Shown: piece by piece, positions 5,230 to 39,732 of the stretch
How positions within the stretch are numbered: position 1 is the first letter of the stretch
Layout of the letters: every line of letters starts with the position of its first letter
Source of the DNA: a virus
Taxonomy: Duplodnaviria; Caudoviricetes
Reading direction: 5' to 3' (one strand)
DNA: 60,018 nucleotides
Virus record (IMG/VR): IMGVR_UViG_3300022538_000807
Location: 1 to 60,018 of that record
Translations under genes and position numbers: made by a program
The notes under the pieces: generated by a model
What the model saw: only the letters and a program-made list of their open reading frames with translations
What the model was told of the DNA's origin: nothing
Databases searched by the model: none

Positions 5230-5237
5230 TTAGCTTG

Positions 5238-16581: not shown

Positions 16582-16881
16582 ATCCTCTTCCTCTGCAGGA
16601 AAGGCAATTTCAAACGCCTGGCGTATTCTGTCAGCAATTTCTGCTATCTCACCCAATTCAAGAAAATTCCCCACATCTTTAACCGTTAGGCTCTCATCCT
16701 CATGGATGAGGCCGGCCCAAACAATAGCTCTCAAATCTTTAAGCCCTACTGAGCCGGCCAGAATATTTCCTAACTTAGCTATCGATAAACCAAGTTCATC
16801 TTCCAACGCACAAAGAGCGTTAAAATCGAAGCGGAGATGCCTCTGTTTGTCCAATTGAATTGGAATAGATTTAATAGGCAT
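16528..16881 (-). CDS. Tail assembly chaperone (gpG-like)
   Basis: IQLDKQRHLRFDFNALCALEDELG...RAIVWAGLIHED; lies between tail tube and tape measure. Confidence 0.85.
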   Translation of the reverse strand: MPIKSIPIQLDKQRHLRFDFNALCALEDELGLSIAKLGNILAGSVGLKDLRAIVWAGLIHEDESLTVKDVGNFLELGEIAEIADRIRQAFEIAFPAEEEDKKKEAGSNQGSGTGKNS

Positions 16882-16901
16882 TCTCCTTTATTCTCCTTTC
16901 T

Positions 16902-20402: not shown

Positions 20403-20446
20403 ATATTCCCTTGTTGGTGAGTTGCTAGGAACATAATAAATTTTAA

Positions 20447-21115
20447 TTATTTTCTCTTTGCCCTCCCTTTATAATGAACCATGCAAGCATCTTCTATGTC
20501 TGTTGGATAAGCTCCGTAGATTCTTTTCTCTAATGGCAATATCTTATACCCATGAACTTCGTAAATTTGTCCCGAAATAATCTTGCAAGAATCCTCTTCT
20601 GGAAGCATTATTTGATTCAGAGAACTCTGTTTATTAAACCAACTTTGTTTCCACCCATCGATTTTCAAAGTTTCGGGAAAAAATCTAAAGTCAGGCTTTC
20701 CCCAAAGTTCGGCTTTGTTAATCCACTCAACCCAAAACCTCCGAATAATATCAGGTCTTTTATTATTAAGGGCAACTAACCCAGCATTATAATCTTGCCG
20801 CCCATTTTCATTACAATGCCTTCCTCGGTAACAAACGGCAACATCCCAATCGGCTTCAAAGATATTTGGTAAGGGTTTTTTTAGTTCATTGTCACAATCC
20901 AACACAATTATTGGCCTTGAGTTTATTGCTTTTATGATATAAGAATATAACAAACAAGCTGATACAGTAAAAAAATCTGCATTTTTTCCTGGAAAATTAA
21001 CCTTAATGAGCTGAAAATCGCCAGCATCAAATCTTTTTATGCTCTTTTCAAGTTCTTTGGCAAGAGTTAAATATGGTTCTCTAGGATTTGAAAAAGTAAG
21101 AAATAAAGGTCTCAT
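20447..21115 (-). CDS. GT-A fold nucleotide-diphospho-sugar transferase; paralog of 21112-21822
   Basis: VLDCD (DxD), YNAGLV, QSSLNQ, MVHYKG. Confidence 0.75.
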   Translation of the reverse strand: MRPLFLTFSNPREPYLTLAKELEKSIKRFDAGDFQLIKVNFPGKNADFFTVSACLLYSYIIKAINSRPIIVLDCDNELKKPLPNIFEADWDVAVCYRGRHCNENGRQDYNAGLVALNNKRPDIIRRFWVEWINKAELWGKPDFRFFPETLKIDGWKQSWFNKQSSLNQIMLPEEDSCKIISGQIYEVHGYKILPLEKRIYGAYPTDIEDACMVHYKGRAKRK

Positions 21116-21822
21116 GGCTTTCTTCTAATTCCTTTGCTTTTTCCTTTATATTGAATCATATAAGCATCATTTGAATCTTTTGGAAGGGCAGCATAAATCC
21201 TTCTTTCAAGTGGTAGTATTTTATAATCACAGGTTTCGTAAATCTCTCCAGGAACTATTTTATAAGAATCTTCTTCTGGATTCCCCCGATTGCTTTCTGG
21301 AAGAATTATCTGATTTAATGCACCCTGATCAGAAAACCAGGAGTCAAGCCACCCATCGTCTATTAGTACTTGGGGAGACGGCTTTTCGTTACATTGCCTC
21401 CAGAATGCAATCATATATGTCCATTCAATCCAAAACTTTTTAATAACAGTAGGCCTTCTATTGTTGAGGGCAACAAATCCAGAACCATAGTCATGTCTTC
21501 CACTGTCTCTTCTTTGTGCCCAGCGAAAAGCTACTGCTATATCCCAATCTGTTTCGAATAAACAATCAAGAGGCTTTATTAATACAGCATCGCAATCAGT
21601 CAATATTATGGGTCTTGTCATAATTGCCTTTGATACATGAGGATATAATAGGCCATTTGCTTCGGCAAAGAAATTCATATCATTGCCTGGGCCCTCAACA
21701 AAAACATGATGGAAATCGCCTGCATCCAGATTCTTGATCTGCCTTCTCAGCTCATGAGCCATTGTTAAATATGGCTCTGCTCCATTGGAATAAACCAAAA
21801 ATAAAGGCTTTATATTTCCCAT
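21112..21822 (-). CDS. GT-A fold nucleotide-diphospho-sugar transferase
   Basis: LTDCD (DxD), YGSGFV, SDQGALNQ, IQYKG. Confidence 0.75.
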   Translation of the reverse strand: MGNIKPLFLVYSNGAEPYLTMAHELRRQIKNLDAGDFHHVFVEGPGNDMNFFAEANGLLYPHVSKAIMTRPIILTDCDAVLIKPLDCLFETDWDIAVAFRWAQRRDSGRHDYGSGFVALNNRRPTVIKKFWIEWTYMIAFWRQCNEKPSPQVLIDDGWLDSWFSDQGALNQIILPESNRGNPEEDSYKIVPGEIYETCDYKILPLERRIYAALPKDSNDAYMIQYKGKSKGIRRKP

Positions 21823-22493
21823 TTATCGTATATCTTAAAATAATTATCCGCTGTTAATTCTTTAAGCTGCTGTTCAAATTCAGGCTTTAATACTCCATGA
21901 AATCGCTCGTTTAAATATAGCCCCCCAAGAACCTCTTTTGCTTTAGCATCCTCTATGTCTTTCATGTCCTGCGTAATATATTCGTGGCGTAATATTCCAA
22001 CGCCCCCTTCAATTGCATCTTTTGCTATCGAGTTCCATAGCGAAGCGTAATCTTCAACACACGCTTTTGTATTAATTCCACCATAGCGTATTGCATGCCT
22101 CTTGTGTCGTATTGTAAGAAGGACAACCATAATATGAACAGGATGTCGTATTAGACAAAAAACATTTTCTATCTTATTCTTTCTAAAAAACAGACCCATA
22201 AGCGATAGGCTTCCTGCCAAAACGGTATTCTTTGTTCCATCGGCATTAATGCGTTCAAGATAATCAACCATATTCTCTTCTATTGTTCTATCCAAATCCA
22301 ATGTATACCAATCATACGTCCTCTTTAAAAATCTTTCTCGTTGCTTCTCTGTCGGCTTGTCTGTAGATTTTATGTTTTTACAATAAATGCCATGTCGTGG
22401 ATAAAAAGCAAGATCGGGTCTTTTATGTGCAGGAAGGCATTTACGTAAATATGTTCCGCCTTGCCCCCCACATGCAACTATAATAATCCCCAT
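21810..22493 (-). CDS. Sulfotransferase-like P-loop protein (tentative)
   Basis: N-terminal IIVACGGQGGTYL, then FCLIRHP, YASLWN and LRHE, in the order of sulfotransferase PAPS-binding motifs but degenerate. Confidence 0.45.
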   Translation of the reverse strand: MGIIIVACGGQGGTYLRKCLPAHKRPDLAFYPRHGIYCKNIKSTDKPTEKQRERFLKRTYDWYTLDLDRTIEENMVDYLERINADGTKNTVLAGSLSLMGLFFRKNKIENVFCLIRHPVHIMVVLLTIRHKRHAIRYGGINTKACVEDYASLWNSIAKDAIEGGVGILRHEYITQDMKDIEDAKAKEVLGGLYLNERFHGVLKPEFEQQLKELTADNYFKIYDKWEI

Positions 22494-23122
22494 TATTTCT
22501 TCTCCAGGACTATAAAATTTCCTCTTTTCTCTTCTGATCCAGAATAAAATTCAATAATTTGATACTTGTTGGAATCAATTCTTTCTATCTGCCGGTTTAT
22601 CCAATCCTTTGCTTTTTTTCCACCTCGCAATCCGAAAATTAAAAGACAACTGTTTTTAAGGAGAGGATGAATATCTTCTAAAAATGAGTTAATAGGCCAA
22701 TGAAATCCCAATGCTAAGAAACTATAAACCAAATCAGGCCTGTAGCTTAGATCCTCCCATTTACATTTTTCAAGGTTAAATATCTCGACATTCTCCATTC
22801 CATTGGATCTACAAAATAGCCCTGTCACTTCTAGGGAATTATAAAAATCAGACTCACCTGTTCTTATTCCCGACAACTGTTTATCACCCGAATCCCCATC
22901 TGCTAGAACAAACAGGGTATCTTTCCAATTGAAATATTTAAAGAGAAAGACGCTTGCCCGTCCTATTCCTGAACCGACATCCAAGGCTATTTTAGGATTC
23001 AAATCTTTTAAATACCCTTCAATTCCTTCAATTTCTGATAATTGAAGAAAATCTTCTTTTTTATCATTACATTGAAGGTCAATATATTTCTGTACTTCTT
23101 CAGGAAAGCCTACCTCAATCAT
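22493..23122 (-). CDS. Class I SAM-dependent methyltransferase
   Basis: IALDVGSGIGR motif I; DLVYSFLALGFHWP. Confidence 0.8.
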   Translation of the reverse strand: MIEVGFPEEVQKYIDLQCNDKKEDFLQLSEIEGIEGYLKDLNPKIALDVGSGIGRASVFLFKYFNWKDTLFVLADGDSGDKQLSGIRTGESDFYNSLEVTGLFCRSNGMENVEIFNLEKCKWEDLSYRPDLVYSFLALGFHWPINSFLEDIHPLLKNSCLLIFGLRGGKKAKDWINRQIERIDSNKYQIIEFYSGSEEKRGNFIVLEKK

Positions 23123-23874
23123 CTTGTCCTTGCCCTCTCTAATCGCTTTTCTCTCAAAAGTATTCTATGCTCTCGCCTAATCCGCCTTTTTTCTTCAGGA
23201 GAAAACACCTGGTCTTTTGTTATATTGTGAATATGAGAAACAAAACAGTTAAGCGCAACTGCTGATTTATAGCCCGAGTGCCTTACCCTTTCATTATAAT
23301 CATCGTCATTTCCCCAGCAGGTAAGCCTTTCATCAAGCATTCCTACTTTATCAACCATTTCTCTACGCAACACCGCACAAAACATTGAAACATTATCATT
23401 GCAATAAACAAACCTTGAGGGAAGCTTATTTATCATATCATATCGCATATCTGGTCCTAGTAATTTATGTACGGGTATCATATAAGAAGCCCTCGGACAG
23501 TTAGAACCGATATTGTCAGTCAGTGGAGAAATCAAACCAATTTCAGGCTGCTCCTCCATTATTGCGATGAGTTTTGTTAACCACTTTTTAGTTACAAAAA
23601 CATCATTGCTCAGGGTTACCACATACTTGGAATCAGAAAGCTCTATCCCTTTATTCGTACCCCTTGCATAATACTGGTTTTCTTCAAACCGAAACACTAC
23701 GGAATCTTCAAAAGTCTTAACATATTTTTTTACCGTCTCATAATTCTCTTTCTTTGAACCATTGTCCACCCAGATTATTCGATAGGGCATGCGTGTTTTG
23801 TCCTTTACTGTTCTTAGACAATTTAATGTCATAATAGGAAAATTCCATCCCAAAATAGTGATGTCTATTCTCAT
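23119..23874 (-). CDS. GT2 glycosyltransferase
   Basis: IIWVDNGS, YARGTNKG, LSND, VGMLDE, NDDDY. Confidence 0.9.
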   Translation of the reverse strand: MRIDITILGWNFPIMTLNCLRTVKDKTRMPYRIIWVDNGSKKENYETVKKYVKTFEDSVVFRFEENQYYARGTNKGIELSDSKYVVTLSNDVFVTKKWLTKLIAIMEEQPEIGLISPLTDNIGSNCPRASYMIPVHKLLGPDMRYDMINKLPSRFVYCNDNVSMFCAVLRREMVDKVGMLDERLTCWGNDDDYNERVRHSGYKSAVALNCFVSHIHNITKDQVFSPEEKRRIRREHRILLREKRLERARTR

Positions 23875-24635
23875 ATTTTATAAACTTTTCCAATTCCAAA
23901 ATCCACAAGTGCCTTTGTGATAATCTCCTTGTCTATGATTTTTTCCCCTCTCCATCGGATAGTACTACCTTTTTTTATATCGCTAATATTTTGAATATGC
24001 CTGATATGACAAACTTTATATCCTATAATCTCTTTTGTTGTGGACAAATTTGCACTGGCAAAACGATGATTCACATAATGCTGTTCAATAAAATCCCCCC
24101 ATTTCTTATAGATAGAACGAGGAAAAACATGGGTGAAAAAGGGCGAAGATTGTGCACGTACATGATATATAATATAATGCCTTAGAGTATCCCAAATAAT
24201 ATACTGTTTTATTATTAACTCGCTTCTTTTATCATCAATAAAAACAGAGTCTTTAATCTCCGCCATCAGGTCTTTATGGAAAAGGTCGTCTGAATCAATC
24301 CTTGTTATTGCAACGTGTTCAGTGTCTATTGTGTCATATCCAGCTACCATTGATGCTGGTCGCATTCGCTTGGGATTGGTTAGCCTGTCCTCCCCCTGCA
24401 CATGATAAACTTCCACCTTCGGATGCCAGGGCAAACTTTCCGTTATCGCCTTATGTCTATTTCCACAAATTGCGAATATTCTAAAATCCTGAAAGCTTTG
24501 ATTTAATAAACTAGGTAATGTGTATTTCTTAAAAATCCTAAAACGCTGCTTAATCCATTCAGGATTCAACTGGGCTTCCCCAGGTGGTCTATCAAAACTA
24601 AAAAATATCTCTACTATGTGAGTTATGTCGCTCAT
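23871..24635 (-). CDS. Putative rhamnosyltransferase-like GT-A protein
   Basis: RFRIFKKYTLPSLLNQSFQDF and TRIDSDD motifs. Confidence 0.75.
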   Translation of the reverse strand: MSDITHIVEIFFSFDRPPGEAQLNPEWIKQRFRIFKKYTLPSLLNQSFQDFRIFAICGNRHKAITESLPWHPKVEVYHVQGEDRLTNPKRMRPASMVAGYDTIDTEHVAITRIDSDDLFHKDLMAEIKDSVFIDDKRSELIIKQYIIWDTLRHYIIYHVRAQSSPFFTHVFPRSIYKKWGDFIEQHYVNHRFASANLSTTKEIIGYKVCHIRHIQNISDIKKGSTIRWRGEKIIDKEIITKALVDFGIGKVYKI

Positions 24636-25980: not shown

Positions 25981-27141
25981 TTAAAGTAATCGCCTCTTAA
26001 ATAAATCAAGTCCATTCTGAAGTTCAATCGGCATTAAGGCTTTGACTGCAATAAGGTCTCCCATGTTAAATTTCTCATAAGAATAATCACCAAGGGTTTC
26101 CGACATAAGATCACCGGTATCCGCCCTCTTAGATTTGCCATACATATAACAAACCAGTTCAATGCAGAATTGCATTAAAGCATAGGGTGCACTTCCTGAA
26201 GCATATCCGGCTGAATATGAAACAAAAACATTCCTGAATCCAGCAGAAAAACTTGGTGTCCATTCGATTGTTCCGTTATCCAAATCAACATCATAATCCG
26301 CAATCGGATCGCTTGGAATTTCAAGATAATTATCAGCGTTTAAACACTGAATATTAGGTTGGGTGAATAATGCAGCCGAAGGATAGGGATTGTAAAGGCT
26401 ATTCGCAATCGAAGCACTCCATCCCAAACCTATGCCGTTTATAACACCTACAAGTTTGGTAAGCGTTTCGGCTGTACCAGTGACTACGGTGGTATCAATT
26501 GGTCCATCCCAAGTTCCGTCACGATAAAGATTGATTGATGCCCCCTGTGTTACTATCACATAGGCATTTCTGATAGCAGCAGATGTGCATTTTATTCTAA
26601 TAGCACCTATTGTACTTGTGTTAACTTCTATTACTTCTTCTAAGGGATAATTTTCAAGGAAAAGTTTATTGCCTTCGCCATTATACCGTTCATGGGTATA
26701 TGTGGCGTATATAAAATGTCTATGACAATAGCGGTTAATCAAATCCGATGCCCTATTAATAAGTTCTGCGATAAGATATCTGTCAAGGATGCGTAAGGTT
26801 TGCCTGTTGCCTGATCCTAAACAAGGAAGTTGTCCCGTCTCTTCAAGGTCAACCGTCAAAGCATTTGAATGATAAAGCCTTCCAGCCTCCCATCCTGCCA
26901 CGCTTGCATTTATATAATCCACCAATTCAGCAAGGGTATCATAGGCAGCAAGGGATAAATCCAGATTCGCATCTGTAACGGCATCGTGGATTAGAATAAG
27001 CCAGTCATTCTCAACTTGTACTGTAGCAGTAGCGCCTGCCCCAGAACGATAAACCCAAAAAGCAGACCTATAAGCATTCTCTCCAAGAAATGCTATGATA
27101 TCATCTACCGAAGCTAAAGCTATAGCTGCATCTAATGCCAT
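25981..27141 (-). CDS. Head-tail adaptor (gp6-like) with inserted domains
   Basis: LINRASDLINRYCHR...LFLENYP...VFVSYSAGY...SETLGDYSY; enlarged to 386 aa. Confidence 0.8.
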   Translation of the reverse strand: MALDAAIALASVDDIIAFLGENAYRSAFWVYRSGAGATATVQVENDWLILIHDAVTDANLDLSLAAYDTLAELVDYINASVAGWEAGRLYHSNALTVDLEETGQLPCLGSGNRQTLRILDRYLIAELINRASDLINRYCHRHFIYATYTHERYNGEGNKLFLENYPLEEVIEVNTSTIGAIRIKCTSAAIRNAYVIVTQGASINLYRDGTWDGPIDTTVVTGTAETLTKLVGVINGIGLGWSASIANSLYNPYPSAALFTQPNIQCLNADNYLEIPSDPIADYDVDLDNGTIEWTPSFSAGFRNVFVSYSAGYASGSAPYALMQFCIELVCYMYGKSKRADTGDLMSETLGDYSYEKFNMGDLIAVKALMPIELQNGLDLFKRRLL

Positions 27142-27242
27142 TTTCTCCCCCTTTTGTTAATAAAGGCTAAATTATCCTGATGTGAGGCTCAAATAGCCTC
27201 GTAGACGCAAAAAGTCACCTTAATGAATACCCAAGTAAGGGC

Positions 27243-27422
27243 TTATTTAGCCTTATCTGCCATTTCCACCATTTTATTCTCTGGTGGTTTTTCAAATAGC
27301 TTTGCTACCCCTTGTTCTATCCACTTTTGGGCAATATGTTCATAGGTATCGAATGTTTTGCCCTTCTTGTGGCAACAGCCGAAGTTTTTAAGAAATACTA
27401 CTTTTACCATAGTGCGATTCAT
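27243..27422 (-). CDS. 59-aa head-region small protein
   Basis: Hand translation MNRTMVKVVFLKNFGCCHKKGKTFDTYEHIAQKWIEQGVAKLFEKPPENKMVEMADKAK; resembles small proteins upstream of HK97-type adaptors. Confidence 0.6.
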   Translation of the reverse strand: MNRTMVKVVFLKNFGCCHKKGKTFDTYEHIAQKWIEQGVAKLFEKPPENKMVEMADKAK

Positions 27423-28594
27423 TTCTTTAACCTATCCTCAAATATTTTTAATGCTGGAATCCAATATTTATCCCATACTACATTCCAATCATATTCCAGA
27501 ACACTTTCTCTAGCATCTTTCTTTAGGCTTTTCCAATCGCCATGTTTCCAAAAGTTATAAGCTACTGCCAAACACTTCAAGATATTTGACACTCGTGGTT
27601 CTTCTCTCCATGTTCCAGTCGGCAACCAACGCAGGTCATCATCATCCACATCAATTAACCACCCTGATTTGCATAGTTCAGAACCGGTAGTGGTATCTGT
27701 GGTTATTGTTGGTATGCCACAGCTTTGTGCTTCAACTATGGGCATTCCAAATCCTTCGCCTTTTGTTGCCAGGCAAAACACATCAAATCCGTTATAGGTA
27801 TTACTTAACCAATTCTCATCTAGCCTATTAAAATCATAATATTGTTGATTTGGATAAGTTACATAATCAACAATCTCCAAATCTTCACCTATTCGAGCAT
27901 AGTCAATTGAGGAATCTCTTAGTCCTGGTGCGTGGGTATGAAGATATAACCTTGCCTCTGGATGTTGTTTGTGGAATTCTTTAAATGCCCGCATTAGAGG
28001 AATAAACCCCTTTCTATCATCACTATAGTTGAGCCCTACAGAACCAATGATAAAAAGATTCTCATCTTCCCAGTCAACGCTTTTCCTGAAGGCTTTTCGC
28101 CCCTCTGTAGATGGCTTAAAGACTTCCGTATTAATTCCTAGTGGGATATACAGCGGATCAAGTCCGATGGACTTCAGTTCTCTTGCGCCATGTTTAGACA
28201 TTGCAATTCGAATACCAGGACCTTTATTCTCTTCAATATTAGAATCTTTACCTAAAATAAGACTAGCATAGTGAGTTGCTATCCATTCTGTATCTATAGG
28301 AAGATAGGCAATCCATTTTTCATGTGGAAAATGACGCTTTTCTGCTAACAACCAAACATCCCAGAATGTAAAGATATAATCAAAATTCTCCTCTTTTATC
28401 ATCGCACAGAGATGTTTGAGGTTAAGTCCCTCAAAAATCTCAATACCTTCCCACTTGTGCCAACCACTATGAACATGCTTAGTGGCAATTCTTACAAAGT
28501 GTCCTGCTTTAACAAGCCTTCGCACAAGCTCCTTGGTAACAATCCCATAAGCCGAATTGCATATGGGGGTGGAACTATTCCAGAGGATTCGCAT
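27419..28594 (-). CDS. GT4-family glycosyltransferase
   Basis: MRILWNS...SAYG...IPLGINT...EGFGMPIVEAQSCGIP...YDW. Confidence 0.9.
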   Translation of the reverse strand: MRILWNSSTPICNSAYGIVTKELVRRLVKAGHFVRIATKHVHSGWHKWEGIEIFEGLNLKHLCAMIKEENFDYIFTFWDVWLLAEKRHFPHEKWIAYLPIDTEWIATHYASLILGKDSNIEENKGPGIRIAMSKHGARELKSIGLDPLYIPLGINTEVFKPSTEGRKAFRKSVDWEDENLFIIGSVGLNYSDDRKGFIPLMRAFKEFHKQHPEARLYLHTHAPGLRDSSIDYARIGEDLEIVDYVTYPNQQYYDFNRLDENWLSNTYNGFDVFCLATKGEGFGMPIVEAQSCGIPTITTDTTTGSELCKSGWLIDVDDDDLRWLPTGTWREEPRVSNILKCLAVAYNFWKHGDWKSLKKDARESVLEYDWNVVWDKYWIPALKIFEDRLKK

Positions 28595-28606
28595 ATAGCC
28601 TCCTAA

Positions 28607-28816
28607 TTAAAAGTATGAGTACGTTGCTCTGTTATCCCATACTTTATCGAATTTATTGTCAGCACCAGCCCATTGTTCAGCGACAATAAGGCCTCCTGAA
28701 TATATGAGCTTTTTTATCTTCCACATTGCAGTTGCGTTTTTCGTACCCGGCAATGCCCATCCTTCATATATGGGATCATTACCAAAGTAATCTATGTTAT
28801 GTGTTAGTTTGGCCAT
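28607..28816 (-). CDS. Small virion-associated beta protein (possible head-fibre docking factor)
   Basis: YEGWALPGT...WKIKKL...WAG...FDKVWDNRATYSY resembles small phage proteins encoded beside NPFTG-motif fibre genes; no signal peptide. Confidence 0.55.
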   Translation of the reverse strand: MAKLTHNIDYFGNDPIYEGWALPGTKNATAMWKIKKLIYSGGLIVAEQWAGADNKFDKVWDNRATYSYF

Positions 28817-28846
28817 TTTTATTCCTCCTTTCTTTCAATATTATTC

Positions 28847-29179
28847 TTAATTCACATATCCGTTATCTATTAGCCACTGTTTCAATTCAGTCAGCTTTGT
28901 TATCCTTACCTGTACCCATTGTACGGAATAGTCAGGATGAATATTTAAAATCTTGATAAGCTCATTTCTTCTATTTACATCGTCAATTATCTCTGCCTTT
29001 TCTGACTCTATGCTTACAATGGTGTTATAAAGTTGCTGTATTTGCATTTCGCCACTTTCAAGTGCCCCGATAATCACCCTGAAGTCTCGCCAAGCTTCTT
29101 TATTCGCTTCCTGTGCCAAAAGAAATATTGACATCGAAAGAATCAATGCAATCCCGATAAATATTAATGTCTTTTTCAT
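28847..29179 (-). CDS. Signal-peptide-bearing paralog of 7232-7492
   Basis: MKKTLIFIGIALILSMSIFLLA-QEA, then about 48/85 ungapped identities (hand count) to 7232-7492. Confidence 0.75.
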   Translation of the reverse strand: MKKTLIFIGIALILSMSIFLLAQEANKEAWRDFRVIIGALESGEMQIQQLYNTIVSIESEKAEIIDDVNRRNELIKILNIHPDYSVQWVQVRITKLTELKQWLIDNGYVN

Positions 29180-29195
29180 ATTGCCTCCTATTATA

Positions 29196-29867
29196 TTATG
29201 TTAAATCCTCTCCAAGCTTGTCGTCTATAAACGCGAAATGAACCTGGATGAGACAGGCGTCCGTTCCGAGAGTATCCTCACTGAAATCGCGCCATAGCCG
29301 AAGTCCCAAAATATCATGAGCGATTGCGCCTGTGATGCCGGTCGTCAGCCTTATCCGGATGAGCATACCAGTAGCATGGTTACCGTCAGTGGTCGTGGTT
29401 ATAGTCGTTGTTGTATCATTGACCGTCTCACCACCCACAATAGTAATATAATCAAGATTCCAGCAGACAGTCCCGTTATCCTGCGCACCGGTATAGCACC
29501 AATCAACATCAACGTCTATTGTTGTGCCGACTGCCAATCTGAATGGCACTATGATGGAGTAATATGCCTCGTCGTCATGTGTCGAATCGAAAAGAATCAC
29601 AGGGAAAATCCCGACTAAACCATCCGTCGGGGCTTCAGCCCCTCTCTCCCAACTAGGTGCGGTAACACGCACATGATTCCTCACTCTCGCCGTTCCGACC
29701 ATTGTCAGCGTGCCGTCTGGTGACAACTGCGTGTAGTTGGCCGTATCCCCCATTTGGAACGTACCATCATCAGCTATCCGCAACCAAGCCAGATGAAGAT
29801 AGTGATCGGCCATGAGGAAAGCGCAGAAAACGAAAACAGCTAAGCCGATAATCGCCAGTTTTTTCAT
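29196..29867 (-). CDS. Signal-peptide-bearing beta-sandwich fibre-like protein
   Basis: MKKLAIIGLAVFVFCAFLMA-DHY; SPDGTLTMVGTARV fibre-like segment; Thr-rich jelly-roll-like C-terminus. Confidence 0.6.
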   Translation of the reverse strand: MKKLAIIGLAVFVFCAFLMADHYLHLAWLRIADDGTFQMGDTANYTQLSPDGTLTMVGTARVRNHVRVTAPSWERGAEAPTDGLVGIFPVILFDSTHDDEAYYSIIVPFRLAVGTTIDVDVDWCYTGAQDNGTVCWNLDYITIVGGETVNDTTTTITTTTDGNHATGMLIRIRLTTGITGAIAHDILGLRLWRDFSEDTLGTDACLIQVHFAFIDDKLGEDLT

Positions 29868-29879
29868 CTTTAAACCTCT

Positions 29880-31025
29880 TTAATATTGCGTATAAATGAA
29901 ATAAAATATCACTTCGCCTGCGCTTGTTGTATTAAGATTGGCTCCTACTGCCGTGGAATAAGCCAACCAGGCTTTAGCGGCCGTGGTATAATAAGCCCCT
30001 GCTGTAGTGGCACTCCAATAAGCACCCTTTAGGCTGTAGTCCAGCCCTACGGCATCAGAAGTCAGGTTCATCGTCTCCAGTAATATCCCAGTATTGTCGC
30101 CCGCATCTCCTACGGTGACATCCAAATCCGTCATGCCCGCCGCCACAAATTGAGTCTCTAAAACAATAATAACATTCTCCAATCGGCTATTGGCTGGCTG
30201 TGTCCAGATAGTAACGGAGTCTGTCAGACCTGCCGCATCGAACAGGTCAGAGCCGTGAACTTTGGCTATATGGTATCTGGCTATGTTGTAGAGCGATGTG
30301 TCGTTCGTGTCATCAACCCTGAAGTCGGCAAAGAAGTTGTATCCCTTGCCCGATGATGCGTCACCCACGCTTGTCAGTAGCGACTTAATTAATAGGCTTC
30401 CGCCTGCTGCTGTATTAGTCTGGTTATATTTGTCTTCAAAATACATCCATGCCTGCTCTGCGTTGTCATCAACGAGTTCAATGTTGGCAGCGGAATCAAA
30501 TTCAACAGCATTACCCGAAGATCTGTCATACACATTGCGAAAAGTAGGCCTTCCCGAAATTTCAAATATGAAGTTTGATTTTGCATATATTGTATCATGC
30601 GTGATTCTTAAATAATCGGTGAAAGCCGCATCCATTATATATATTGCAGGCTCCGCAGATGCAGCCAATCCTCTATCGGTATTAATATCTCCCCTATCAC
30701 AGATAATCAAAGTCCGCAGGGCCTCATCAAGCCCTATCCTCAAGTCAGTACCAGCTAAACCTTCGGCTGTAGATGTCCTAATTAAATTTGAATAAGCTAC
30801 ACTCCCAAGTGATAATTGAGAATTGTCATCTGAAACAAATTCCAACACGATAGTCGAATCGCCATCAGCATCATTTATCGTTAATGAAGTCAAGAAAGTA
30901 GGTGAATCACCCGCTCCCATATACCAATCAAGCTTTCCTGTAAATGGGTTATAACGCCAATCGGCATAGCCTGTCGATGCCACCAAAAACAGTAAAGCTA
31001 TTATTGTTATAATTAATTTTTTCAT
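29880..31025 (-). CDS. Signal-peptide-bearing fibre protein sharing a central domain with the tail fibre
   Basis: MKKLIITIIALLFLVASTGYA-DWRYNPFTGKLDW; AEGLAGxDxRxGLDEALRTxIxCDRGDINTD and AEQAWMY are shared with 7505-8824. Confidence 0.75.
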   Translation of the reverse strand: MKKLIITIIALLFLVASTGYADWRYNPFTGKLDWYMGAGDSPTFLTSLTINDADGDSTIVLEFVSDDNSQLSLGSVAYSNLIRTSTAEGLAGTDLRIGLDEALRTLIICDRGDINTDRGLAASAEPAIYIMDAAFTDYLRITHDTIYAKSNFIFEISGRPTFRNVYDRSSGNAVEFDSAANIELVDDNAEQAWMYFEDKYNQTNTAAGGSLLIKSLLTSVGDASSGKGYNFFADFRVDDTNDTSLYNIARYHIAKVHGSDLFDAAGLTDSVTIWTQPANSRLENVIIVLETQFVAAGMTDLDVTVGDAGDNTGILLETMNLTSDAVGLDYSLKGAYWSATTAGAYYTTAAKAWLAYSTAVGANLNTTSAGEVIFYFIYTQY

Positions 31026-31375
31026 TTTTTATCCTCCTTTATTTGCTCCTCTATCTCCTTCTCGGCTTCAGCCTGGAGCTTTAGAAAATCCTGCGTTGTA
31101 ATAAAAATCCCGTTTCTCAAATCTAAAATTGCATCTTCAGGCATATCCTCAAATTCAGCGAACCGTTTAATCAACTCTGCTTTATATGAATTCACTTTAA
31201 TTTGAAATTCCATGTTGAATTTCTCAATCATGTTCTGAAGATTCTCTGCCATATAAACAGGCAGTTTCCATGTTTTTATTTCAAGCTTATCCTCTTTTAC
31301 TGCCTCATCAGATAAACATGGAATAGAGACAAGGAAAACCATTAGAAATATCATAATTGCTGTTTTTTTAAACAT
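31022..31375 (-). CDS. Signal-peptide-bearing helical protein
   Basis: MFKKTAIMIFLMVFLVSIPCLS-DEA followed by a charged helical domain. Confidence 0.6.
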   Translation of the reverse strand: MFKKTAIMIFLMVFLVSIPCLSDEAVKEDKLEIKTWKLPVYMAENLQNMIEKFNMEFQIKVNSYKAELIKRFAEFEDMPEDAILDLRNGIFITTQDFLKLQAEAEKEIEEQIKEDKK

Positions 31376-31402
31376 TATTACTCCTTTGTTACTTGTTTAT
31401 AG

Positions 31403-31434
31403 AAAAAGGGAAGAGGAGTTGTCTCCTCCTCCCC
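31403..31434 (-). terminator. Rho-independent terminator after the capsid/decoration genes
   Basis: Minus strand GGGGAGGAGGAG-ACAA-CTCCTCTTCCC-TTTTT. Confidence 0.8.
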
Positions 31435-31444
31435 ATCTATTATG

Positions 31445-31906
31445 TCAATTCAGCATGGTCGCTTGTTTGTACCTAGCTCTACCTTGAACCAAGAATATAC
31501 TTGCTACTTCCGAACCATCTGTGTCGTTGGTGGTAAGTCTTGCGCCGACATAAGCATAGCCCGATGACAGGCCTTCGCCTCGGACTTGAGCCTCAAGTAT
31601 ATCAAGACTCGCTCCAGCAGCAGAAGTGTAAGTGTCAATACAATTGGGTGCGGCAGTTGTTGATAAAGCCTGTGCACCTCCACCGGTTGCATCAGTAGCT
31701 TCATACATTGCAAGAGTTACAACTGCACCACTAGAACAGCTACTAACGTGTCCAACAGCACGAATTAAATCATAATATCGTGCACGGCAATATGCAGGTG
31801 TTTCAATACAATCAGCAGCGGGTGGACTGGCTTCTGAACCAAGGTCAGTTGACATATCAAGGCCACTAGATCGATAATTCTGTTTGAAGACGTGTACGTT
31901 CGCCAT
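31445..31906 (-). CDS. Capsid decoration / cement-like protein
   Basis: Follows the capsid genes; VVTLAMYEATDATGGGAQAL...YAYVGARLT...RARY resembles such proteins. Confidence 0.65.
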   Translation of the reverse strand: MANVHVFKQNYRSSGLDMSTDLGSEASPPAADCIETPAYCRARYYDLIRAVGHVSSCSSGAVVTLAMYEATDATGGGAQALSTTAAPNCIDTYTSAAGASLDILEAQVRGEGLSSGYAYVGARLTTNDTDGSEVASIFLVQGRARYKQATMLN

Positions 31907-31967
31907 TATTTTACCTCCTATTTATTTTTTGCCTAACTAACTACGGTAGTTAAGCTCACGAGTGGAT

Positions 31968-33029
31968 TTAGCTCACTTGTGCGGCAAGAACCACAAAAGC
32001 ACTTACGGTATTAGCCCCTCGATAAGGGGTTATAGGATCACCCATAATGGGTTGTCCATCTACCCTAAGCACCACTCGCCAGAACGTCTCGTCGGTTACG
32101 AATCCTACGTGTTCGTAGTTTTGTAATCGAAGTTGTAGATAATCCATATCACGAGACGCATCTATTGTCATTTCCCTATCAGCTATTACATAGTGACTAA
32201 AGTCAGCCAATAACAAATCCCCTGTAGTACCAAGAGCATAAGCCTTTTCACTGACTATAATCGGCAACCCTAGAAGTTTACGATCATTCACATTAACAAC
32301 ACTAACAACACCCGCCTCTACCGTATCAAGACGGAATATTTCCTCTAAAGTATCAGAATTCATAATCCAGACCGCCCTATTCCAGCTATCAGGCAACAAC
32401 CTCAATGCCATCCCAACAACATCGTCGTAAAGGATGGAGTTGGCCTGTGCCCTAGGAACTGTAATAAGAGCACCAGAATTTATGACTCCCATCGGTTGAT
32501 TCACACCAGTGCCGTTAATGAAACTATCGTCTTCAATAAAGCGTAAAGCTCTACCAAAGCTAATCTTCATGAAATCACCAAATTTACCATAATCGGCCTC
32601 TAGCTCATTACTGACAAAACAGCCGCCAACAAGTTTGTGCGGAGTAAGTTCCAGTTCACCGAGAGCGGGTTTAGAGACTCTATATGCCTTGCTGCCCGCT
32701 TCCTCCAGCCATCTAAAAGTGATTCCACCAAAAAGGCTAGAGACACGACTGGTTTCAACCATTCGCCTCACCTTTAAGGAATCACTTGTGGCTTTAAGAA
32801 CGGTAGCTCGTGGACGCACAATTGCATCCTCAAGAGCAACGCTGTAAATCTCCTTTGCCCATTGTTCGGGAACAAGATACCCACCTTGAGAATCATCCCC
32901 AATTTCCATGTGGCCTGCTGTCTTTCGTAATAGCCGACTGTCCTTTATGCCAGAAGCACAAGCTTTGCGAACTCTGACTAAGAACTCACCAAGACTTCTG
33001 AATCCGCCTGTTCCATCGTCTGTACTCAT
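31968..33029 (-). CDS. Second HK97-fold major capsid protein (paralog lacking most of the delta domain)
   Basis: GGYLVPE, LELTPHKL, VSNEL, FINGTGVNQPMGV, LLGLPIIVSE, ADFSHY, RVDG; own GAGGT SD. Confidence 0.9.
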   Translation of the reverse strand: MSTDDGTGGFRSLGEFLVRVRKACASGIKDSRLLRKTAGHMEIGDDSQGGYLVPEQWAKEIYSVALEDAIVRPRATVLKATSDSLKVRRMVETSRVSSLFGGITFRWLEEAGSKAYRVSKPALGELELTPHKLVGGCFVSNELEADYGKFGDFMKISFGRALRFIEDDSFINGTGVNQPMGVINSGALITVPRAQANSILYDDVVGMALRLLPDSWNRAVWIMNSDTLEEIFRLDTVEAGVVSVVNVNDRKLLGLPIIVSEKAYALGTTGDLLLADFSHYVIADREMTIDASRDMDYLQLRLQNYEHVGFVTDETFWRVVLRVDGQPIMGDPITPYRGANTVSAFVVLAAQVS

Positions 33030-33041
33030 TTTTAACCTCTA

Positions 33042-34325
33042 TTAGCTTGTAGCGGCATTAAGAACAACAAACGGTGACATAGAATGAGCACCGTACCTGG
33101 TTGTGAGCGTAGCTGCAGGCCAACACATGCCAGCAACTCTAAGCACGAACCTCCATGCTGTCTCATCGTAATCAAATCGTAGATGAGAACTTGCATCGAT
33201 GGTTATAGGTTGACGGTCTCCGATTAAGTAATACTTAAAATCGAAGAAACCGATATCTCCCTGTACACCAAGTCCCTGCATTTTTTCACTCACGATAACG
33301 GGTCTCCCGAAAATCTTCATTGGAAGAGGTTCGTTCGCTCCGCCATCTGCACTAATCCAGATCATGTTCTTACCAGAAGCATCAGCAGCATTGCCCGTTC
33401 CCAACTCAATAAGCTCAGCTAAAACTTCAGGGTTAATTACCCAGAAGGCCCTGCCTAATGAAGGAGTAAGCATTGCTTGATACATTTCTGCTAAATCTTC
33501 CAGCATCACCCTATTTGCCGTGTTACGAAAAACACTAAGCAAACATCCGCATTGAAGAATTCCCAAAGGCTGTCCACCACCCGTACCATTGATGAATGCG
33601 TCATCCTCGAAAAATCCCCAGGCAGTTCCAAACTGTCTCTTAATGAGTGGTTGCAATGCGATTGCACTGTCAGCCAAAAGTTCATTAGAGGCATAGGTCA
33701 TGCCGGCGAGTTTATGAGGAACGAGTTCCATCTGTCCAAATTCAGGTTTGGTAGGAGTTTTCTGTTTAGTTTCGGCAGTCCAATAGGCTATGATTCCACC
33801 ATATACAGAAGTCACATGAGAAGTGTCATTGATGTATGGAATTTTTAAAGAATCAGTAGTCATCTTGAGAATGGTTGCCCTAGGTCTTACGACTGCCCCT
33901 TCAAGAGCGATTTCGTAAAGGTCTTTCAGGAAAATCTCAGGAACTAAGAATCCACCCTGTGTGTCGTCTCCAATTTCCATGTGTCCGGCTGTTTTAGCTA
34001 GAGGATCAGTATATCTTCCGGCAGGGTCTACCCAAGTTAAGCGAGAATCAATAGCACTTCGGTTCATTCTGAACCTTCTGATTGAAGTCAGATATTCTCC
34101 GAATGTTTTGAATCCCTTGGCTTTTTCTGCTGCTAGTTTTTCTTCAGCGGTAGGTTCTGCAACCTTTACTTTCTCTTTTGCCTTATCAACGGAATCCTGT
34201 AAGAGTTCTTTCAACTGGTCTTGGACATAAGGATCAACTTGCTCTTTCACGAGATCCATTAGTTGCTCATCTATTGTCTTTTTAGTCTGCTCTGCGACTA
34301 AATCTTGTAGTTCACTTTCTTTCAT
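33042..34325 (-). CDS. HK97-fold major capsid protein
   Basis: Coiled-coil delta domain, GGFLVPE, SNELLADS, FINGTGGGQPLGIL, IFGRPVIVSE. Start reassigned to ATG 34325 (MKESELQ). Confidence 0.95.
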   Translation of the reverse strand: MKESELQDLVAEQTKKTIDEQLMDLVKEQVDPYVQDQLKELLQDSVDKAKEKVKVAEPTAEEKLAAEKAKGFKTFGEYLTSIRRFRMNRSAIDSRLTWVDPAGRYTDPLAKTAGHMEIGDDTQGGFLVPEIFLKDLYEIALEGAVVRPRATILKMTTDSLKIPYINDTSHVTSVYGGIIAYWTAETKQKTPTKPEFGQMELVPHKLAGMTYASNELLADSAIALQPLIKRQFGTAWGFFEDDAFINGTGGGQPLGILQCGCLLSVFRNTANRVMLEDLAEMYQAMLTPSLGRAFWVINPEVLAELIELGTGNAADASGKNMIWISADGGANEPLPMKIFGRPVIVSEKMQGLGVQGDIGFFDFKYYLIGDRQPITIDASSHLRFDYDETAWRFVLRVAGMCWPAATLTTRYGAHSMSPFVVLNAATS

Positions 34326-34329
34326 TGTC

Positions 34330-34618
34330 TTTCCATAGTATGCTGACTTTTGAATTTCAGCGATTAGACGAATACCCCCGTTGTTAACCAACAAAGTAGG
34401 TTATATAACCTACTCGTTTGGTAAGTGTGTATCCCCAGTGGCGACTTTTATTAACTAGCTACTTTAAAATTAGCCTCTGTTAATGAAGTCTTCCACCTGA
34501 TAATATCTTTTTAGGAAACAATCCCCTTTTGCTGAAGCCAGCAAGATTGATTAAACCTATATTTCATTGCAGTAAGTATCGCTTCTTGATACTTTAGCGA
34601 AATGAATATAGGTTTAAT
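34330..34618 (-). promoter_or_regulatory. Highly structured leader of the major capsid gene
   Basis: Perfect 20-bp palindrome 34395-34414; 14-bp stem 34550-34563/34605-34618; further stems at 34438-34496. Confidence 0.55.
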
Positions 34619-37655: not shown

Positions 37656-38351
37656 CTATTCAATAAAATCCTTTACTGAATTCTCACTGTTTATTACCCT
37701 TCGACATAATAAAAAACAATCGCTTTTATAATTGTTTATATAATCGTTATCATTTTTAACTGCGTATTTATAACCAGCCTCTTTTACGGTATCTACAGTC
37801 CATTTGTTATAAACATTATAAGGATATGCAAAAGAAACAATAGGAAGCTTAATCTTTTCTTCAATCATCTCTTTCGATTCGGCTATTTCTCGCCACAATG
37901 CCCTTCTTGATAAACATGAGAAATTAAGATGGTACAGTCCATGACTGCCAATTTCATGTCCTGCGTTCAATACGTTATGTATCTCACTCCAATCCAACAA
38001 AGCCATTAGGTGCAATTCCCTTTTACGCCATCGAGCGGTATCTCCAACTAGCTTAGACACAATAAATACCGTAGCTGAAAAATTAAACCTATCTAAAACT
38101 GGCATAGCAGTATCAGAAAAATCCTTATATCCATCATCGAAGGTTAATATAATAGCCTTTTTTTGTTTAATATCCTTAAAAAATTCTTTGAGAGAAACTC
38201 CCTTATATCCACGTTCAGCCAGCCATTGCATTTCTAATCCGAAGGTTGAGGGGGAAACTGCCCAAGGATCTTCGCTATTATTTGAGATACTGTGGTATGC
38301 TAAAATTTCAGTCATATTATCCCTTGTTGTGTTTTCCTGTTTCCTCAACAT
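37656..38351 (-). CDS. Polysaccharide deacetylase (NodB/CE4)
   Basis: ILAYHSI, LTFDDGY, EIGSHGLYH, FAYPY; the true start is probably MTEIL. Confidence 0.9.
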   Translation of the reverse strand: MLRKQENTTRDNMTEILAYHSISNNSEDPWAVSPSTFGLEMQWLAERGYKGVSLKEFFKDIKQKKAIILTFDDGYKDFSDTAMPVLDRFNFSATVFIVSKLVGDTARWRKRELHLMALLDWSEIHNVLNAGHEIGSHGLYHLNFSCLSRRALWREIAESKEMIEEKIKLPIVSFAYPYNVYNKWTVDTVKEAGYKYAVKNDNDYINNYKSDCFLLCRRVINSENSVKDFIE

Positions 38352-39732
38352 AGGCTTTCATCCGTCTGACATTATCCTTCATCTGGCATATCGGAAGGAA
38401 TCTATTATGAATCATCGGCTCATATTCTCTTTCAACTTTCTTCCCGTTTTTCATAACCCAGCCATATTGATTATACTTCCTGAAATCTTTACTCAGAATC
38501 TCACAGTTGTATCTATCGGGATTGTTCCATATCGGACTTCCCGGAAGCGGGGTGAATGTGGAAAGCGTAATCATATCAAAATCAAGCCTACTAATATAAT
38601 CCCTATTTAACTCAGGAGTGTCTGCCCTTTCTCCTGGCGTTCCCATCATAAATAATACCTTAATTTTTAAACCTGCCTTCTTTGCATTTCTGCATCCTTC
38701 TAGCATCGCTTCCGCATCTATATGTTTATCCAAAAAATCGAGGACTCGCTGATCTCCGCTTTCAACTCCTGGCCAAATCTCCCTGCATCCAGCAGTTACC
38801 AGAGATTCACATATCTCAGAATCAAGCTGATCGGCTCGTACTAGACACCGCCAGATAATATCAAGCTTTTTAAATTGATCGCACAGATTTAGACATCTTC
38901 TTCTATTCAATGTCATATTATCATCCCATATCCCGAACTGCCTTATTCCAGTAGATTCGACAATCTCTTTTATCTCCGAAACGATATTAAATATTGACCT
39001 ATATCTTGTTTTTCGCTCCCACATAGATTGGGATGCACAAAAAGCACAATTAAATGAACATCCTCTGGAAGTTATAAGACTCTCGCTTCCACCGCTGACA
39101 TAGCTTTCTCTGTTTACGAAAATATCCTCGCCATAACTTCCCTCAATTAACGACCTGTCGGGAAAAGGAATAGCATCAAGATCCTCAATAAATCCATTGG
39201 GGCAATAAATTTTTTTAAGTTCTCCCTTCTCAACATCTCTAACCATATCCGATATAATAAGCTCACCCTCGCCTATGCCTATCGCATCAAATAAATCACC
39301 CTTAGAAATATCCTGATACATCGCCGTAGCATGAGTACCACCAAGAAATATCTTTATACCAGGAAGATGTTTCCTTATCCATATAGCACATTCCACATTC
39401 ATCGGATATTCTAGTGTTGTTCCACTCATACAGATAATATCCGCATCCTCGAAGTTGATAAAATCCTCTTTCCTTTGGGGGCGTACCAACCTTGCTTCGT
39501 AACCTTCTCTTTTAAGAATTGTAGCTAAATATAGCGGTCCTAATGCAATGTGCATATTTTGTCTAACAAGCCAGGGACTAGGAGTTTCAACAAAAACTAT
39601 CTTCAAGTCTGCCTGTCTTTTAATAAATCCGATATCACCCATATCATAACTGACAACCGTACCCTTCCATGCCTCATGAACCCTCCGGATATATATTCGA
39701 TAATTGGAGTTTCTGACCAGAGGATTTGCCAT
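38317..39732 (-). CDS. B12-binding radical SAM enzyme
   Basis: LGPLYLA...LGGTHAT...GEGE B12 domain; TSRGCSFNCAFC; DDNM; GVESG. True start probably near 39606-39640. Confidence 0.9.
   Translation of the reverse strand: MANPLVRNSNYRIYIRRVHEAWKGTVVSYDMGDIGFIKRQADLKIVFVETPSPWLVRQNMHIALGPLYLATILKREGYEARLVRPQRKEDFINFEDADIICMSGTTLEYPMNVECAIWIRKHLPGIKIFLGGTHATAMYQDISKGDLFDAIGIGEGELIISDMVRDVEKGELKKIYCPNGFIEDLDAIPFPDRSLIEGSYGEDIFVNRESYVSGGSESLITSRGCSFNCAFCASQSMWERKTRYRSIFNIVSEIKEIVESTGIRQFGIWDDNMTLNRRRCLNLCDQFKKLDIIWRCLVRADQLDSEICESLVTAGCREIWPGVESGDQRVLDFLDKHIDAEAMLEGCRNAKKAGLKIKVLFMMGTPGERADTPELNRDYISRLDFDMITLSTFTPLPGSPIWNNPDRYNCEILSKDFRKYNQYGWVMKNGKKVEREYEPMIHNRFLPICQMKDNVRRMKAYVEETGKHNKG

Follow-up and report, generated by a model that had tools for sequence, protein, structure and literature searches.

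Four consecutive genes with predicted signal peptides

The DNA analyzed in this study is the entire IMG/VR virus record IMGVR_UViG_3300022538_000807, a tailed-phage genome of 60,018 bases that we call the window. The minus strand carries all genes taken as real, and our interest centers on a cassette at positions 31375-28607 of this strand, in which four consecutive open reading frames (ORFs) begin with hydrophobic leaders. ORF-A (31375-31022, 117 amino acids) starts with MFKK and 15 hydrophobic residues, followed by a predicted cleavage site (CLS/DEA) and an acidic mature part. ORF-B (31025-29880, 381 amino acids), with predicted cleavage at GYA/DWR, has a shaft at residues 41-250 and a jelly roll at about residues 236-381. 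ORF-C (29867-29196, 223 amino acids) has a predicted cleavage site at LMA/DHY, a short linker, and a β-sandwich at residues 64-216, and ORF-D (29179-28847, 110 amino acids) has an 86-residue body after predicted cleavage at LLA/QEA, which places Gln at position +1. The adjoining ORF-E (28816-28607, 69 amino acids) is leaderless. Beyond it lies a gene for a GT1-family glycosyltransferase (28594-27419), which we treat as context outside the exported set and which is a conserved resident of this genomic slot in relatives that lack the cassette.

These genes are closely packed. The gaps between ORF-A and ORF-B, ORF-B and ORF-C, and ORF-C and ORF-D are -4, 12, and 16 nucleotides (nt), the first being an overlap of 4 nt between the stop of ORF-A and the start of ORF-B, and the gaps before ORF-E and the glycosyltransferase gene are 30 and 12 nt. 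Shine-Dalgarno (SD) cores precede the starts of ORF-A to ORF-D (AGGAG, AGGAGG, GAGG, and AGGAGG, respectively). Internal Met codons lack an upstream SD site. Among them are M36 of ORF-B and M39 of ORF-C, and the idea that leaderless isoforms of these two proteins begin there was rejected because no ribosome-binding site is present at either codon. A preliminary description of this DNA had placed four consecutive signal-peptide genes just past the capsid terminator. All four ORFs were found in the positions given there, with N-termini exactly as quoted. A terminator-like hairpin also exists (31434-31407, a 12-bp stem followed by a T run), but it precedes the cassette after a gene for a 153-amino-acid protein (31906-31445) rather than after the capsid gene itself.

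The leaders were judged by sequence rules and homology. Their n-regions are MFKK, MKK, MKK, and MKK (ORF-A to ORF-D), and their h-regions span 15-18 residues, with that of ORF-D being the longest (18). The hydrophobic windows cover residues 2-16, 1-20, 1-21, and 4-23, and no further segment of this kind is present in these proteins. At the predicted sites, residue -1 is S, A, A, and A, residue -3 is C, G, L, and L, and residue +1 is Asp in ORF-A, ORF-B, and ORF-C and Gln in ORF-D. Neither a lipobox Cys at +1 nor a twin-arginine motif occurs in any of the four leaders, and a weak match of ORF-D to the Pfam family LPAM_1 (E = 0.03, below the cut-off) involves the leader only. In ORF-A, ORF-B, and ORF-C, no Pfam family of any kind reached E 0.1, and none pointing to a type IX secretion system or an autotransporter was matched.

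It could be argued that nothing is exported, and that these hydrophobic N-termini either have a structural role within virion proteins that stay in the cytoplasm or are artifacts of start-codon assignment. Apart from them, the proteins consist of typical fiber and head domains, and most of the homologs are leaderless. However, the SD sites described above are strong at the annotated starts and absent at the internal ones, and a leader/leaderless split recurs in three protein families (see below). Furthermore, four adjacent leaders with complete n-, h-, and c-regions are unlikely to arise by chance. A hydrophobic segment was found in 12 of the 112 minus-strand ORFs of at least 40 amino acids that were examined, and among these 112 no protein longer than 100 amino acids other than ORF-A to ORF-D has its sole hydrophobic segment at the N-terminus. 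The tape measure (with an internal segment), a protein with three transmembrane (TM) segments, and small membrane proteins from around the lysis region account for the other eight cases. The chance that four such genes would be adjacent among 91 ORFs of at least 60 amino acids is about 88/C(91,4) = 3e-5. Hydrophobic N-termini of this type would also be captured by the Sec/signal recognition particle machinery. We regard the absence of export as very improbable, and export of the four cassette proteins, as judged from their sequences, as well supported and quite likely.

Paralogy between the cassette and the tail-fiber module

Two of the leader-bearing proteins have leaderless paralogs in the tail region of the same genome. 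Residues 41-250 of ORF-B match residues 132-341 of a putative tail fiber or receptor-binding protein (8824-7505, 439 amino acids, leaderless), with 89 of 210 positions identical (42%, E = 1e-42). This protein is encoded by the fourth gene after the tape-measure gene. Pfam and PHROG searches gave no family match for it, and its name rests on synteny and on a modular architecture of N-terminal anchor, shaft, and C-terminal tip. In ORF-B, the leader stands in place of the virion-attachment N-terminus of the tail fiber. Directly downstream of the tail-fiber gene lies a small leaderless gene (7492-7232, 86 amino acids), whose entire product aligns with residues 25-109 of ORF-D without gaps (48/85 identical, E = 3e-35). 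The match begins two residues past the predicted cleavage site of ORF-D. Among the homologs collected, P0075 is identical in sequence to the 86-residue protein.

Both relationships had been proposed in the preliminary description, the first from shared motifs and the second from a gapless alignment made by hand, and our computations reproduced the quoted motifs as well as the 48 identities. Its broader claim, that the cassette duplicates the tail-fiber module, holds for ORF-B and ORF-D and fails for ORF-A and ORF-C. In an all-against-all comparison of the genome, ORF-A, ORF-C, and ORF-E are without a paralog, and ORF-A has no Pfam hit and a single weak PHROG hit. The sequences thus show that ORF-B and ORF-D arose by duplication of the fiber shaft of this phage and of its small partner.

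A partner role for ORF-D and the 7492-7232 product is suggested by the position of the latter directly after the fiber gene and by the co-duplication of the two genes. Against curated Tfa and chaperone families, both proteins gave only sub-threshold Pfam and PHROG hits. When viral contigs were scanned with the ORF-D alignment, the sole result was a leaderless locus at the edge of a contig (L023, 140-751, plus strand). The gene downstream of its ORF-D-like gene is homologous to window gene 7090-6740 (43% identity). This arrangement indicates that the small partner and the following 116-amino-acid gene form a conserved pair downstream of tail fibers.

ORF-E aligns end to end with a C-terminal extension that is present in two leader-bearing homologs of ORF-D (P0084 and P0123, 175-179 amino acids; E = 5e-4 and 2e-4), and on the basis of this fusion ORF-E is probably linked to ORF-D in function. 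The earlier proposal that ORF-E may serve as an anchor for the exported set receives only indirect support from these alignments. A search with ORF-E returned only itself and a 97% variant. Complex prediction for mature ORF-D with ORF-E gave a score of 0.00 in a run made without controls, which carries no weight either way.

Leader-bearing and leaderless forms in three protein families

A scan of 1.84 billion representatives for the ORF-D family returned 51 hits, from which two long repeat proteins and two fragments were dropped. The remaining 47 comprise 33 leaderless proteins (about 86 amino acids) and 14 leader-bearing ones (104-179 amino acids). In the family alignment, the leaderless members start with M-A-N/D-K-Q at the position where leader-bearing members have Q-x-x-N-K-Q after their hydrophobic stretch. 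Therefore, a mature exported protein of the ORF-D type would equal the leaderless one. The ORF-B family yielded 38 hits including ORF-B and the tail fiber, and leaders are present in 7 of the 36 others, which were fetched. For ORF-C, 35 hits including ORF-C itself were obtained, and 5 of the 34 homologs fetched have leaders. Thus, in all three families, homologs retain the leader/leaderless dimorphism at 30-60% identity.

In a phylogeny of 48 ORF-D family sequences from which the leaders had been trimmed, the leader label requires about 8 changes (bootstrap range 7-9). This suggests repeated gain or loss of leaders, although only one change is forced by well-supported branches and the alignment is short.

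The residue that follows the predicted cleavage site is also informative. By reading of the sequences, Gln occupies position +1 in 13 of 14 leader-bearing ORF-D homologs, 6 of 7 ORF-B homologs, and 2 of 5 ORF-C homologs, or 21 of 26 overall. According to two reports, Gln at +1 is the Bacteroidetes Q-rule for substrates of signal peptidase I (PMC5837995, PMC10653852). The recurrence of this residue is hard to explain unless the leaders are cleaved.

This bears on the possibility that the leaders are uncleaved signal anchors, which would tether all four proteins to the inner membrane with their bodies facing the periplasm and might, for example, block DNA entry by superinfecting phages or affect lysis timing. 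Anchors of this kind are used by known periplasm-facing phage exclusion and antiholin proteins, and the h-regions of the cassette leaders are rather long for signal peptides. However, a small residue at -1 and a permissive residue at -3 follow every h-region, the Gln that comes next in most leader-bearing homologs is a hallmark of cleaved signal peptidase I substrates in Bacteroidota, and conservation begins exactly past the cleavage point. In addition, no known exclusion protein anchored in the membrane has a comparable fiber or lectin architecture. We consider uncleaved anchors improbable and cleavage by signal peptidase I likely. Taken together, the n/h/c layout of the leaders, the strong ribosome-binding sites, and families that contain both forms with homology starting from the cleavage site support the earlier proposal that the phage exports a second set of fiber and partner proteins.

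A need for disulfide formation or glycosylation in the periplasm was considered as a reason for export and set aside. Mature ORF-B has one Cys, and ORF-C has three that are kept in leaderless homologs as well, a pattern that does not support this idea, and the neighboring glycosyltransferase gene is kept in relatives without the cassette.

Several other searches were without result. ORF-D had no usable hit in the ESM Atlas, and ORF-C had no match by tblastn against GenBank phages. Scans of viral contigs with ORF-B and with P0054 gave no relative, and a scan with the back-translated mature N-terminal motif gave no match. Scans of genome contigs with the ORF-C alignment and with P0037 were likewise without a relative, so that prophages gave no host call.

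Domain architecture of ORF-B and ORF-C

The C-terminal domain of ORF-B (about 145 amino acids) is the most conserved part of its family, and the N-termini vary. Elsewhere, this domain is joined to diverse N-terminal regions, including right-handed β-helices, and it is found in leaderless proteins as well. Homologs also exchange N- and C-terminal modules around the common shaft. In both the ORF-B and ORF-C families, the mature part of leader-bearing homologs starts with a common conserved peptide, Q-Q-P-x-I-x-P-x-x-P-x-T, that precedes different heads.

An AlphaFold2 model of ORF-B is confident for residues 236-381 only, which form the jelly roll. Its best structural matches are the cement protein of cyanophage Pam1 (7eel_H; Z 10.3, root mean square deviation [rmsd] 8.5, 130 residues aligned), a protein of Helicobacter phage KHP40 (7dou_4; Z 9.4, rmsd 3.8, 109 aligned), and a protein of Ralstonia phage GP4 (8h89_J; Z 9.3, rmsd 3.5, 124 aligned). 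These scores are only slightly above the typical best background of the comparison (Z 7-8). The next matches are a baseplate chain of siphophage R4C (Z 8.1), followed by plant-virus coats, Ena pili, and TNF/C1q-like heads (Z 5-6). A BFVD fold search with ORF-B was uninformative, returning mostly unnamed phage proteins of 130-160 amino acids and collagen-like fibers. The three top matches are trimeric jelly-roll cement proteins, which resemble ORF-B in the fold of its C-terminal domain and in the location of its gene beside a capsid gene. They differ in being stand-alone, leaderless proteins of about 125-155 amino acids that assemble in the cytoplasm, and they are 10-14% identical to the ORF-B domain.

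Such matches raise the possibility that virions of this phage are assembled in two compartments. Exported ORF-B and ORF-C, along with their helpers, would mature in the periplasm and join capsids or tails as head or side fibers, either when the holin opens the inner membrane within an intact outer membrane or just after lysis. Head fibers that dock at lysis had been put forward in the preliminary description, along with a receptor-masking or decoy system for exclusion. In support of two-compartment assembly, capsid cement or decoration proteins rank first among the structural matches of the ORF-B domain, the domain is conserved next to variable N-termini as would be expected for an anchor, and the shared mature peptide resembles a docking tail. 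On the other hand, the jelly roll is a very common fold that also forms distal knobs, as in the R4C baseplate chain and the TNF/C1q-like heads, and a profile comparison revealed no relation between the ORF-B family and the family of the 153-amino-acid capsid-associated protein (probability 0.1%). A PDB sequence search with the latter family found nothing.

The β-sandwich of ORF-C was modeled by AlphaFold2 with a pLDDT (predicted local distance difference test) of 81. When compared by VIA-align, residues 64-216 match CBM6/35/36 structures with Z scores of 11-12.4 and rmsd values of 2.4-2.9 over 116-138 residues, and these matches are weaker by Foldseek. As modeled, ORF-C carries a CBM6/35/36-like domain that may bind sugar. 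Domains of this type end long tail-fiber or needle-like proteins elsewhere (911 amino acids in locus L036 and 440 in locus L025) and also occur as stand-alone leaderless ORFs of 176-184 amino acids.

Leader-bearing tail-like proteins in a P22-like fragment

An independent case was found in L025, a P22-like fragment that is roughly 54% complete. At 3762-6692 (plus strand), between gp4-like adaptor and gp10-like genes, four consecutive leader-bearing ORFs encode proteins of 172, 180, 110, and 510 amino acids. The last of these matches the PHROG "tail protein" family phrog_5302 from residue 28 onward (E = 3e-100) as well as annotated tail-fiber proteins of cultured phages, and a PDB sequence search with it found nothing. 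A further ORF at the position of the P22 tailspike gene (16342-16986, plus strand) has a 22-residue leader followed immediately by a P22-type head-binding domain (Pfam PF09008, E = 1.9e-15; PDB 1lkt, E = 1.6e-11). All 184 matching records from cultured phages align from residue 24 or later, and the leader is not seen there. Thus, this protein has the head-binding domain of a P22-type tailspike but adds a leader that is absent from the alignments with cultured phages. The needle-position gene of L025 ends in an ORF-C-like knob. The phage represented by the window has no P22-type head-binding domain.

Both tail-fiber or tailspike homologs of L025 that are recognized by family searches bear leaders, as might be expected if exported proteins joined virions in two-compartment assembly. 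However, because the fragment is about half complete, a leaderless tailspike may lie outside it. Moreover, a head-binding domain does not by itself mark a virion protein. WceF of Pantoea stewartii (PDB 6tgf) is an exported protein with a tailspike fold, whose proposed target is polysaccharide of the periplasm or biofilm (PMC7949094). It retains a head-binding-like domain (6tgf_F), which weakly matches the leader-bearing ORF of L025, though WceF is not part of a virion.

A variable slot between capsid and adaptor genes

The cassette lies between genes that are shared with other phages. Upstream are the HK97-fold major capsid gene (33029-31968, 353 amino acids, the second of two paralogs) and the conserved gene for the 153-amino-acid capsid-associated protein, and downstream is a head-tail adaptor-like gene (27141-25981). 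A blastn search of GenBank phages with positions 27000-33100 gave no match, and we fetched 20 loci related by their capsid proteins (52-61% identity). Homologs of ORF-A to ORF-E and of both tail paralogs are absent from all 20 (E up to 1e-2). In the seven that reach the adaptor, the slot between the capsid/153-amino-acid genes and the adaptor gene spans 637 to 6125 bp. The contents of the slot in these relatives include glycosyltransferases (5 loci), large β-helix-like ORFs, immunoglobulin (Ig)-like ORFs, and a gene pair encoding proteins of 117 and roughly 540 amino acids. Short metagenome contigs join leaderless ORF-C-like genes to this same pair. These comparisons show that the cassette is inserted beside the capsid genes, at a hot spot for accessory genes of a surface type. 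The location and the leaderless fiber-, β-helix-, Ig-, and ORF-C-like genes found there in relatives are also as might be expected if cassette proteins became part of the virion.

A 63-kb capsid relative (L014, 15353-17278, plus strand) has a leader-bearing 132-amino-acid Ig-like ORF in the same slot. This ORF is followed by a 503-amino-acid protein of many tandem repeats of roughly 20 residues that contain P-A-L-T-Q-x-H.

Accessory insertions of this type could be morons that benefit the host, in which case adhesins or lectins expressed from a prophage would alter the surface of the lysogen. Exported morons such as Lom, Bor, and Cor occur in phage late regions, and the cassette is missing from relatives and follows a terminator-like hairpin. 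Signal-peptide genes that conform to the Q-rule and are of unknown role have been noted in Porphyromonas phages and prophages (PMC10367356). However, the cassette is on the same strand as the structural genes and tightly packed between them, with one start overlapping the previous stop, and a scan for promoter-like sites was at background (15 sites compared to 15.8 expected). A Pfam scan of 40 window ORFs, which was not exhaustive, revealed no integrase or repressor family, and the record has direct terminal repeats. Furthermore, the paralogs of ORF-B and ORF-D are tail genes of the phage itself rather than host genes. Lysogenic conversion therefore seems to us an improbable purpose for the cassette.

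Genome context and host

The record, with its direct terminal repeats, has a completeness rating of 100%, and the genome is of siphovirus type. On the minus strand, we located the portal gene (44712-43276), a protease/capsid-like gene (37069-35534), a first HK97-fold capsid paralog (34394-33042, 450 amino acids), and the tape-measure gene (16121-12837). Also identified on this strand were genes for a Mu-F-like head protein, a tail tube, and neck and tail completion proteins. The genes that follow the tape measure encode, in order, proteins of 391, 939, 439, and 86 amino acids. A tRNA scan of the genome found none.

The tandem HK97-fold capsid paralogs (31968-34394) are 43% identical to each other, and an upstream second capsid-like ORF is also present in most of the capsid-related loci among those listed; one head module with two major-capsid-type genes is unusual. 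The head module also includes a 471-amino-acid B12-binding radical SAM enzyme (38317-39732). A second tail-tube-like gene (48720-49187), with 37% identity over 132 amino acids to the tail tube (16902-17321), sits near the terminase region, far from the tail module. Glycosyltransferase genes are abundant in the structural module, both between the neck and tail genes (17943-24635) and adjoining the cassette (27419-28594), and include rhamnosyltransferase-like, GT2, and GT1-like types, a double GT2 of 549 amino acids, and the GT1 gene noted above. Relatives carry glycosyltransferases too, one of them with an epimerase/dehydratase-like ORF. This abundance may point to modification of virion or host glycans. 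Tandem paralogs of 222 and 236 amino acids that are 50% identical lie among the glycosyltransferase genes (20447-21822). All of these features are on the minus strand.

The closest cultured relatives of the capsid protein are 25-32% identical and infect many phyla, so the capsid does not permit a host call. SD cores of at least 5 nt precede 26 of 91 genes, compared to 2.5% of random positions. The use of SD sites is rare in Bacteroidota, and this heavy use therefore disfavors a Bacteroidota host despite the Q-rule in many homologs. A spanin-like pair (50984-50521, minus strand) is in an unusual order, with a Pro-rich lipoprotein-like ORF (87 amino acids) first, overlapping by 4 nt a 67-amino-acid ORF that has an N-terminal TM segment and a coiled coil. 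The genome also encodes a small TM protein and a 119-amino-acid single-domain M15 peptidase. Together with the spanin-like pair, these genes constitute moderate evidence for a diderm host.

A possible role at the host envelope

The cassette is well supported as an accessory module that is made with the structural proteins and whose products would leave the cytoplasm. For their subsequent function, we propose the following mechanism. In a diderm host, the mature cassette proteins would fold in the periplasm. ORF-B would form a trimeric fiber with a jelly-roll knob, accompanied by ORF-D as its partner or chaperone, and ORF-D may have needed a leader of its own because it accompanies an exported protein. 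ORF-C would bind glycan. Rather than being part of the virion, the proteins would bind envelope glycans, either nascent polysaccharide in the periplasm or the surface and debris once lysis releases them. Such binding would mask or alter adsorption sites, resulting in less superinfection by other phages and fewer progeny lost on dying cells and debris. This glycan-binding, non-virion role is the weakest step of our proposal, and we assign it a probability of roughly 0.4. In its favor are the leader anatomy, the authentic gene starts, the leader/leaderless dimorphism, the paralogy with the tail module, the fold of ORF-C, the accessory nature of the insertion, the likely diderm host, and bacterial precedents that are discussed below.

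Several observations weigh against this role. ORF-B shares only the shaft with the tail fiber, and its C-terminal tip differs. Without the tail-fiber tip, simple masking of the receptor that the phage itself uses cannot be the task of ORF-B. It is also not obvious how a protein in the periplasm of a diderm would reach the cell surface. The cassette is in a late structural operon beside capsid genes, in a slot that holds fiber-, β-helix-, and Ig-like genes in relatives, and this position and these contents fit a virion accessory better than an exclusion gene. Likewise, the C-terminal domain of ORF-B is most like trimeric capsid cement proteins, and a leader precedes a canonical virion head-binding domain in the P22-like fragment. 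ORF-E is leaderless, and its fusion to ORF-D in homologs implies partners that would be in different compartments until lysis. Finally, Gln is at +1 in only one of the four cassette leaders, and the use of SD sites disfavors a Bacteroidota host.

Some of these observations would be accommodated by the assembly of virions in two compartments. For example, ORF-E could meet ORF-D only once the compartments mix. Tailspikes and fibers of model phages attach to particles in vitro, with tailspikes being added last, and spanin mutants show a stage at which the inner membrane is open and the outer membrane is intact. However, our literature searches yielded no case in which a virion protein of a tailed phage matures in the periplasm, and we know of none. 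Assembly after mixing would also be inefficient, and the Cys pattern gives no evident need for periplasmic chemistry. On balance, we view two-compartment assembly as the main rival explanation for this phage, though an unlikely one. Its generalization is somewhat less probable still, namely, that some tailed phages of diderms build their virions in two compartments, with Sec-exported fibers, tailspikes, or head fibers joining particles at the holin step. If this were so, the cassette and the leader-bearing ORFs of L025 would be two independent examples, and periplasmic fibers could also act on nascent surface glycans of the host.

Relationship to known exported proteins

The envelope-binding role that we favor has partial precedents among bacterial and phage proteins. 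The mosaic adhesive trimer (MAT) fibers of Bdellovibrio bacteriovorus are signal-peptide-bearing, tail-fiber-like trimeric adhesins (PMC10769870). MAT fibers resemble the cassette proteins in that a signal peptide is followed at once by a conserved segment and that the tip domains are interchangeable, and the MAT-related structure 8okh_B (Bd1399) is among the weak Foldseek matches of ORF-C. As described there, however, MAT fibers are bacterial and are displayed on the surface for prey recognition, whereas the cassette is phage encoded and accompanied by a leaderless paralogous set. Many MAT fibers are also reported there to end in an S74 chaperone-protease, and the cassette has no Pfam hit for S74. 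WceF is likewise bacterial and is an active β-helix glycanase exported by the twin-arginine pathway, whereas ORF-B and ORF-C have Sec-type leaders and no recognizable catalytic domain.

Among phage proteins, Lom, Bor, Cor, Llp, and the Sp and Imm proteins of T4 are exported morons or exclusion proteins that alter the envelope of the infected or lysogenic cell. Similar to the cassette proteins, these are phage encoded and bear signal peptides, and their genes often lie in or next to tail or structural regions. They differ in being small lipoproteins or membrane proteins that are unrelated to virion proteins and are usually expressed early or from the prophage. The cassette products are fiber- or lectin-like, and their genes are co-oriented within a late operon and have no promoter of their own above the scan background.

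Full-text searches of the literature, in which most hits were seen as abstracts or listings, revealed no description of exported fiber paralogs encoded by a phage, and we know of no phage operon of Sec-exported paralogs of its own fiber module. Exported phage morons and exported fiber-like bacterial adhesins are already known, and what seems to be new is the probable export of fiber-module paralogs together with a leader split in three families.

It is assumed that virion proteins of tailed phages stay in the cytoplasm, and the phage proteins known to be exported are mainly small lysis, exclusion, or conversion factors. The cassette, the leader split in three families, and the unrelated podovirus fragment together suggest that phages repeatedly put receptor-binding hardware to use outside the cytoplasm in a way that has not been described. 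Because a leader alters the expected location of a protein, this also bears on the annotation of fiber genes in metagenomes, and the question is directly testable even without the native host. Either envelope masking by fiber paralogs or periplasmic fiber maturation would be new biology, and both outcomes bear on host-range prediction and on the engineering of secreted phage-derived binders.

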